Positions 7,957 through 8,367 of a stretch of 10,330 bases of DNA are shown piece by piece. A program made the position numbers and the translations under genes. Below the pieces are notes generated by a model. It saw only the letters and a list, made by a program, of their open reading frames with translations. It was not told the DNA's origin and searched no databases. Within the stretch, counting starts at the first letter, position 1; the number at the start of each line of letters is the position of its first letter. This DNA comes from a virus, in UHGV virus genome UHGV-1624697; one strand, given 5' to 3'.

Positions 7957-8367
7957 GTGAAAGAGCTTAAGCTGATGCGGAAAGCGGGATTGCATACCGT
8001 CGACAGTGCGCCGCTGTTCCGGTGTGGCTATTTTGTGTATGCGTACGACATGGGGCAGTGGGTGGCTATGTGTCGGATACTCGGTGTCGATGACGCGGTG
8101 GATGAGGGGTGCTCGGGTGTGTGTCAGAAGTTTGTGCGCAATACGCAGCAGGTATATGCTATAGGCGTATTCAACGGAGGGCTGGACACGCTGGTACATG
8201 AGTGCGCCCATGCAGCATTTCACTTTTGCGACGATATCGGTATTACGGTTTCGCCGGACAGGGCGAATGAGACGTACTGCTACCTGCTTGACTGGCTGTT
8301 TGGTCAGGGTGTTATGGGTAATCGTGCCGCGTTCAGGCCATGCCTGGAAGAACCCGGAGGTGAGTAA
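7957..8367 (+). CDS. Small Cys/His-rich protein (136 aa) with an HExxH zincin-like motif (LVHECAHAAFHF); candidate minimal metallopeptidase or zinc-binding protein
   Basis: GTG 7957 with GGGGGTG 6 nt upstream (alternative ATG 7975); stop TAA 8365-8367. HECAH at 8197-8211 sits in hydrophobic helix-like context with a further His at 8221-8223; 9 Cys in 136 aa. Confidence 0.6.
   Translation: MKELKLMRKAGLHTVDSAPLFRCGYFVYAYDMGQWVAMCRILGVDDAVDEGCSGVCQKFVRNTQQVYAIGVFNGGLDTLVHECAHAAFHFCDDIGITVSPDRANETYCYLLDWLFGQGVMGNRAAFRPCLEEPGGE

Follow-up and report, generated by a model that had tools for sequence, protein, structure and literature searches.

What does a protein of 136 amino acids (aa) with a zinc-peptidase-like HExxH motif do in the middle of a phage structural operon? 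The question is raised by a gene at positions 7957-8367 of a 10,330-nucleotide stretch of the virus genome UHGV-1624697 (hereafter the window, meaning the whole stretch that was analysed), in which an earlier sequence-only reading had seen a small Cys/His-rich open reading frame (ORF) with a zincin-like helix, reminiscent of SprT-like proteins and minimal gluzincins. We assign the protein to the hkcC/Orf129 family, known from phage P22 and its relatives, and find that four residues, arranged as in gluzincins, are invariant across that family. We propose, at a probability of roughly 45%, that it is an active stand-alone minimal gluzincin that works with the injected protein set of the phage, as a free-standing equivalent of the metallopeptidase (MPTase) domains found within polyvalent proteins. 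The ORF proved real, running on the plus strand from a GTG start to a TAA stop, and H81, E82, H85 and H89 lie where they had been placed, within residues 79-90 (LVHECAHAAFHF). The gene and the residues on which the argument turns are as follows:

7957..8367, + strand: stand-alone gene of the predicted zincin (hkcC/Orf129 family, PHROG 1365), GTG start, TAA stop, 136 aa, from the ORF list and the sequence
8116..8118, + strand: G54, start of a predicted beta-hairpin and, going by zincin architecture, of a proposed substrate-binding edge strand; kept in 135/136 representatives
8197..8211, + strand: HECAH, in predicted helix 76-93; H81 and H85 are the proposed Zn ligands, E82 the proposed general base
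8221..8223, + strand: H89, not conserved; of the 136 representatives, 33 have F, 16 have D and 15 have Y in this column, and the rest have other residues
8266..8283, + strand: NETYCY, holding E105 (proposed third Zn ligand, from conservation and the model), C108 and Y109

Taken by itself, the motif is no more than suggestive, because chance alone should place an HExxH in about 5% of proteomes this large: the main ORFs of the window (3432 aa) contain one, the expectation from composition is 0.054, and at least one appears in 5.1% of per-protein shuffles, a caveat that the sequence-only reading had rightly attached to its own call. What raises the motif above chance is its conservation across the family. 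Homologues lacking the motif, the evidence to which that reading had looked against its own idea, are the exception, as 262 of 266 collected relatives carry it; three of the four others look frameshifted or truncated and one reads HKAAH. When 128 diverse members are aligned, the mean column identity is 11%, yet H81, E82, H85 and E105 are invariant; no other column is, although G54, G95 and Y109 come close. This refutes the notion that the HExxH is an accident in an unrelated small structural protein, to which we attach next to no credence. Counted among 136 representatives, H81 is kept in 135, E82 in 134, H85 in 133, E105 in 134, Y109 in 129 and C108 in 111 (~82%). As these four residues are invariant whereas H89 and most of the cysteines vary, the family signature is HExxH-x19-E, which is the gluzincin arrangement. 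In thermolysin, the spacing between H146 and E166 is 20 residues, equal to that between H85 and E105.

The same alignment separates what stands in the sequence-only reading from what does not. Three of the four residues whose conservation it had asked about (H81, E82 and H85) are invariant in the 128 members; the fourth, the extra H89, is variable, and we rejected it as a metal ligand of the family, its column being mostly F, D and Y. The conserved candidate for the third ligand, E105, had been missed. The description as Cys/His-rich is not a family trait either: the window protein has eight cysteines rather than nine (C23, C39, C52, C56, C83, C91, C108 and C129). A zinc cluster built on cysteines was rejected as unlikely, since their number ranges from 1 to 9 across the family and C108 alone is widely kept.

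The family itself, one of accessory genes in tailed phages, corresponds to PHROG 1365 ('unknown function'), whose profile the window protein matches at E 7.9e-23 (residues 34-117 against profile positions 25-111 of 127) and whose named members are hkcC of P22 and HK620 and Orf129 of ST64T and L. Using tblastn, we measured about 40% identity to these proteins over 79-87% of the query, with GVFNG...HECAH...ANETYCY common to all of them. Closer relatives are a protein of 96% identity, encoded on a contig of 59,960 bp in an E. coli assembly, and metagenomic proteins of 57-70% identity. When 1.84 billion cluster representatives were searched by profile, 936 family clusters at 50% identity came up at E<=1e-3, nearly all of them stand-alone proteins of 100-160 aa; among the longer members we found no domain fusions informative of function. 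Published work places hkcC in the sieA/mnt/ant region of P22 with its function unknown (PMC2629481) and lists it among genes of unknown function (PMC4837284). We found no functional study of the hkcC/Orf129 family in the literature, no mention of hkcC in the P22 SieA paper, and nothing on the family either when searching for SprT-like or metalloprotease anti-defence genes or in two papers on accessory-gene screens.

Structure prediction, which the sequence-only reading had proposed as a check, points in the same direction as the conserved residues. An AlphaFold2 model built with a 114-sequence alignment is confident (predicted local distance difference test score 92.2, predicted template-modelling score 0.87) and comprises a helix at 2-9, strands at 13-15, 25-29, 54-61 and 64-71, the HExxH helix at 76-93, a helix at 105-121 of which E105 is the first residue, and a helix at 123-130. 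Its predicted topology, a sheet followed by the HExxH helix and then by the Glu helix, is the order of the zincin core, described for MPTase domains as a three-stranded sheet with one helix bearing HEXXH and another bearing a Glu (PMC5512222). Two hallmarks of clan MA(E) are present, as the HExxH is invariant in the family alignment and lies in a predicted helix, and a candidate Glu ligand sits in the next helix within about 18-25 residues of the second His (E105, at +20).

Database comparisons added weak but consistent signals. The profile of the diverse family gave nine matches to PDB sequences at E<10, all of them weak and all zinc metallopeptidases, among them myroilysin (E 0.0085), BMP1, TLL1 and peptidyl-Lys endopeptidase; the profile of the closer family matched uS10m alone, which is spurious. 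The window protein matched no Pfam family even at E<=10, a few of the 128 members weakly matched putative metallopeptidase families in Pfam other than SprT-like, and NCBIfam held no meaningful match for the family. A Foldseek search with the model found nothing significant in the PDB and 21 small phage proteins at E<=1e-3 among viral predicted structures (BFVD), a few of which bear the names 'SprT-like', 'Metalloprotease' or 'IrrE'. Overall, remote similarity runs consistently, if weakly, toward zinc metallopeptidases. The zincin idea of the sequence-only reading is well supported by the invariant H81, E82 and H85, the predicted fold, the nine peptidase matches and the rank of SprT-like as the Pfam family most often matched, if below threshold, and from the invariant residues and zincin enzymology we infer that the protein binds zinc and cuts peptides as a stand-alone minimal gluzincin-type metallopeptidase.

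Could it instead be a true protease of the SprT/Spartan/Wss1 type, removing DNA-bound proteins, for example in protecting or repairing the phage genome? SprT-like (PF10263) is the Pfam family that most members match (35 of 128, best E 1e-4), and one family member is automatically named 'SprT-like family protein', as are some structural neighbours. However, all 35 matches fall below the gathering threshold (15.7 bits against a cut-off of 25.6 in one example), hhalign against E. coli SprT returned a probability of 5%, and the family has no conserved His after H85, an invariant E105 in its place and no extra domain, so that we regard this identity as quite improbable. A second departure would drop the proteolysis, the protein carrying out other HExxH chemistry (such as that of an aKG-HExxH-type hydroxylase) or acting as a zinc-stabilised binder that blocks a host factor. 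Weak matches of 12 of the 128 members to TIGR04267 ('aKG-HExxH-type peptide beta-hydroxylase', best E 0.012) speak for it, yet they score 12.8 bits against a cut-off of 40, every weak PDB profile match is a peptidase, and the retention of E82 in 134 of 136 representatives together with the conserved Y109 argues for catalysis over mere metal binding; this too seems improbable to us.

If the protein is a peptidase, the surroundings of its gene may tell what it works with. In agreement with the structural-operon setting described earlier, its neighbours are virion-structural and internal-protein genes:

5674-6162, + strand: ORF of 162 aa from GTG (144 aa in the E. coli contig L003, introduced below); no Pfam or PHROG family
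6164-6979, + strand: paralogue 1, 271 aa, in the virion-structural/internal block; phrog_37635 and phrog_8003 'virion structural protein'
6994-7953, + strand: paralogue 2, 319 aa, directly 5' of the zincin gene; phrog_37635 and phrog_8003 'virion structural protein'
7944..7948, + strand: GGGGG, a Shine-Dalgarno-like run 8 nucleotides 5' of the zincin GTG, from the sequence
7951-7953, + strand: TGA stop of the preceding gene, 3 nucleotides before the zincin start, from the sequence
8365..8369, + strand: TAATG, stop/start overlap of the zincin gene with the next gene (translational coupling), from the sequence
8367..9110, + strand: 247-aa downstream neighbour of the zincin, with a (GT)5G repeat; no PHROG family
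9082..9798, + strand, likely start 9112: lambda-R-type lytic transglycosylase protein (phmmer against 3d3d/1am7, E 2.6e-24)
9803..10330, + strand: giant internal 'polyvalent' protein, start only; continues in L003 at 11829-18785, 2318 aa

Because the junctions are close, no promoter-like or terminator-like site in 5500-10330 stands above chance level, and the GC content of the ORF (0.55) is like that of the neighbouring genes, the gene is a tightly packed part of a long operon. We compared this arrangement with an E. coli contig 96.6% identical to the window (L003) and with two more distant relatives (L102 and L103) whose zincins are 65-68% identical to the one in the window. In L003, an SU10-type adaptor comes first, followed by virion proteins (one of them a 540-aa 'internal virion protein', phrog_511), the 144-aa ORF, the two tandem paralogues (271 and 319 aa), the zincin, a protein of 241-247 aa, the lambda-R-type lytic transglycosylase, the 2318-aa giant, two small genes and the holins. 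In all three contigs, the order from paralogue through zincin, 247-aa protein and transglycosylase to giant is kept; the diverged L102 and L103 also keep both junctions of the zincin gene, which comprise the upstream ...GTGTGATAAGTGAAAGA (TGA-TAA-GTG), the GTG start and the downstream TAATG overlap. Since order and junctions persist at 65-68% protein identity, the zincin gene is a stable, fixed member of the module in this lineage. The lineage is an undescribed group of ~60-kb E. coli podoviruses: megablast of the window found no match among 50,697 INPHARED phage records and 5,426 complete E. coli genomes, and Skulduggery, Vibrio phage douglas and Stx-converting podoviruses have structural proteins that share only 25-28% identity with those of this group. 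The E. coli relative (assembly GCA_020144045.1, contig JACIMA010000014.1) came to light through the protein index alone.

The products encoded around the zincin are in part recognisable. The two upstream paralogues, which align over 232 aa at 39% identity (E 3e-43), are a tandem duplication within the internal-protein block. The transglycosylase, called at 228 aa in L003, has its catalytic domain in the N-terminal ~135 residues, followed by a C-terminal extension of ~85 residues; it also matches the phage 'hub' 8kea, has no match in Pfam, and is probably a cell-wall-opening ejection protein. In the giant, which is 52% identical at its N-terminus in L102, aa 1104-1217 are a YkuD domain (L,D-transpeptidase-like) and aa 2003-2162 an LPD38 domain, and its L003 form contains no HExxH or HExxxH. 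[quoted passage not shown] A YkuD domain in an injected giant is a hint that peptidoglycan, or its link to Lpp, may be remodelled as the phage enters. As further observations on the block, the 162-aa ORF sits where Skulduggery has an acyl-CoA N-acyltransferase gene, with no detectable similarity between the two, and the 247-aa protein, which is Q/N-rich, has its (Gly-Thr)5-Gly repeat at nucleotides 8889-8921, encoded by imperfect GGNACN repeats, and is the fastest-diverging of the block (44-47% identity in relatives vs 65-80% for its neighbours).

The position of the gene also bears on the virion maturation peptidase that the sequence-only reading had considered. Genes of prohead proteases lie between the portal and the major capsid or scaffold genes, and the enzymes have the serine protease fold of the HK97/herpesvirus type. 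The zincin gene lies 3' of the adaptor and of the tail and internal-protein genes rather than between portal and capsid genes, and fold and motif are zincin-like, so that we rejected a capsid maturation (prohead) protease. A maturation role is further disfavoured by the accessory, dispensable-looking slots that the gene occupies in P22-like phages, whose heads mature without proteolysis.

As the gene is fixed and translationally coupled within the internal/ejection block, flanked by virion-structural paralogues and, past the 247-aa gene, by the transglycosylase and the LPD38/YkuD giant, we propose that its product works with the injected protein set. In such an enzyme, H81, H85 and E105 would hold one Zn2+ and E82 would activate the zinc-bound water as general base; by analogy with known zincins, the peptide substrate would add as an extra strand against the G54 hairpin, and Y109, one helical turn past E105, would help to stabilise the transition state. 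Acting with the injected proteins, the zincin might cut internal proteins into working pieces; alternatively, after delivery or expression, it might cut a host protein that hinders infection. Both its packaging or association with the ejection proteins and its substrate are things that we infer. The specific form in which it is packaged with the injected set or acts on it, cutting the giant in trans or destroying a host immunity or envelope protein at entry, we judge unlikely.

Where else is the gene found? Upon examining the 80 best IMG/VR loci, which are mostly closely related P22-like/lambdoid prophages and hence not independent counts, we found it directly after ejection gene 16 in 40 and before the tailspike gene in at least 10 more, positions that speak for the proposed tie to the injected set. 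Another locus of the family has it before an integrase-terminase block. In P22, the hkcC ORF has late-operon orientation in the sieA-mnt region. Annotation of this region varies between records: in the P22 record BK000583 (L095), the intact hkcC ORF at 2501-2827 has no coding-sequence annotation and is overlapped by a 'sieA promoter' feature alone, and in UAB_Phi20 hkcC overlaps the annotated sieA (236 aa) from the other strand.

A second comparison concerned the giants at the syntenic position in other phages, which carry one HExxH or HExxxH each and have no solo zincin gene close by:

L098 5311-16398: Skulduggery gp28 (Pseudomonas phage), giant of 3695 aa with DarB-like annotation and SLT, helicase, methyltransferase and LPD39 domains
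L099 15961-22848: VPAG_00062 of Vibrio phage douglas 12A4, giant with a single HExxxH at aa 1962

The single HExxH of gp28 lies at aa 2502, between the methyltransferase and LPD39 domains. In both giants a hydrophobic, strand-like segment precedes the motif, so these may be built-in MPTase domains unseen by Pfam. At the level of motifs, the distribution is thus complementary, with a solo zincin where the giant has no HExxH.

Several points weigh against tying the zincin to the injected set. In at least 25 of the 80 lambdoid loci, the lysis cassette lies on one side of the gene and the small terminase gene on the other, one contig has it between Q and the holin gene, and in phCDa, an N4-like phage, it is the first of a block of small ORFs that look early. 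The motif regions of the Skulduggery and douglas giants align with the zincin family weakly (hhalign probability ~1%), which leaves the argument from complementary distribution anecdotal. The link to the injected proteins is one of gene position only. To our knowledge, P22-like phages have no giant polyvalent protein, and we know of no report of hkcC among the well-studied virion proteins of P22.

The same facts feed the main rival to a role in the injected set, namely that this very enzyme is a 'moron'-type cytoplasmic effector, independent of the virion, that cleaves a host protein during infection, such as a sensor or effector of immunity, or a protein of a competing phage, the site in the ejection block being one more accessory slot. 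It is favoured by the many 'moron' positions of the family, whose members occupy several accessory slots (lysis-terS, Q-holin, the P22 sieA/mnt/ant region and the phCDa small-ORF block), and the syntenic module of Skulduggery does without the gene. The free-standing, acidic protein (~15 kDa, isoelectric point 5.1), with no signal peptide, transmembrane segment or extra domain found in it, would suit such a life as well. However, in this lineage its position and translational coupling are kept down to 65% protein identity, which is more module-like, and neither an experimental report nor a match to known defence or anti-defence models supports an effector: PADLOC-DB 2.0 gave no match for the window protein and scattered single weak matches among the 128 relatives. 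We hold the effector to be possible, if somewhat unlikely. The P22 location suggests yet another role, that of a regulatory protease of the ImmA/IrrE type (M78) that cleaves a phage repressor or regulator in the lysis-lysogeny switch, as the gene there lies in the immI region by mnt, arc and ant; one structural neighbour is named IrrE, and one family member matches Peptidase_M78 (PF06114) at E 0.099. Such similarity is negligible, no XRE-type repressor adjoins the gene in the window, in L003 or in the other contexts examined, and the gene resides in late/structural operons and also in an N4-like (virulent-type) phage, all of which makes a switch protease very improbable.

Two further settings lie in E. 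coli beside virulence genes. A 150-aa homologue (L088, 359-811; 57% identical, HExxH intact) is encoded 82 bp 5' of a gene for a 1302-aa Tsh/Hbp-like SPATE, an autotransporter whose best PDB match is 1wxr. As this arrangement is seen in four independent E. coli contigs (L088-L091), a phage zincin gene has been taken along beside a virulence gene; the ORF 5' of this homologue is unrelated to the gene upstream of the window zincin. In addition, E. coli contigs resembling the virulence plasmid pAA (L092-L094, 10001-10249) encode an 82-aa C-terminal fragment of the zincin clade at 62% identity, which is probably a decayed remnant; its neighbours are genes for a PapD-like chaperone, an AraC-type regulator, DUF535 and a PagP-like protein, and a transposase adjoins it.

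Few phages have been studied as well as P22, HK620, ST64T and L, yet hkcC/Orf129 has been 'unknown' in them since about 2000. Zincin metallopeptidases are known as a kind, and the name 'SprT-like' already appears in a few automatic annotations; what is new here is the explicit four-residue signature of the gluzincin type for the hkcC/Orf129 family, its size and spread, and the fixed place of one member in the ejection/polyvalent-protein module of E. coli podoviruses of ~60 kb whose lineage is undescribed. The conserved gluzincin residues turn an orphan into a testable enzyme candidate. Should its targets be the injected proteins of the phage or proteins of host immunity, the enzyme would be a simple and transferable example of proteolysis as a phage weapon, and it would offer an experimental handle on the MPTase theme predicted for polyvalent proteins. 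A virion-linked role would give the 25-year-old orphan hkcC a function and would suggest that counter-defence of a protease type, linked to the virion, is widespread in tailed phages. Even if the gene turned out to be dispensable, the annotation of thousands of prophage genes would be corrected.

How, then, does the zincin of the window compare with known systems? Its clear homologues hkcC and Orf129 share its length class, HECAH...ANETYCY and late-operon positions, often right after the ejection genes; in contrast to them, the clade of the window is extended at the N-terminus (MKELKLMRKAGLH...) and has a C-terminal tail that is longer, and its gene lies inside rather than after the internal-protein block, in an unrelated podovirus lineage of ~60 kb. 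SprT-like proteins (E. coli SprT, human Spartan and yeast Wss1-like) are likewise small and have a similar N-terminal sheet and HExxH helix, but E. coli SprT reads HELAH...HGKEW and ends in a Cys-rich tail, whereas the acidic zincin has a Glu rather than a His as candidate third ligand and lacks a zinc ribbon or DNA-binding tail. Also among the closest known systems are the gluzincins in general, such as thermolysin (M4), oligopeptidase A (M3) and collagenase (M9) and the minigluzincins proabylysin and projannalysin, of about 100 residues. [quoted passage not shown] The window protein and the 128 members have no listed match to Pfam MPTase-PolyVal; hhalign against the MPTase region of the N4 virion RNA polymerase (aa 2130-2448) gave a probability of 66% and an E of 5.5e-5 over 36 columns. 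Unlike these domains, the zincin is a free-standing protein of 136 aa, and the polyvalent giant is a separate gene further downstream.

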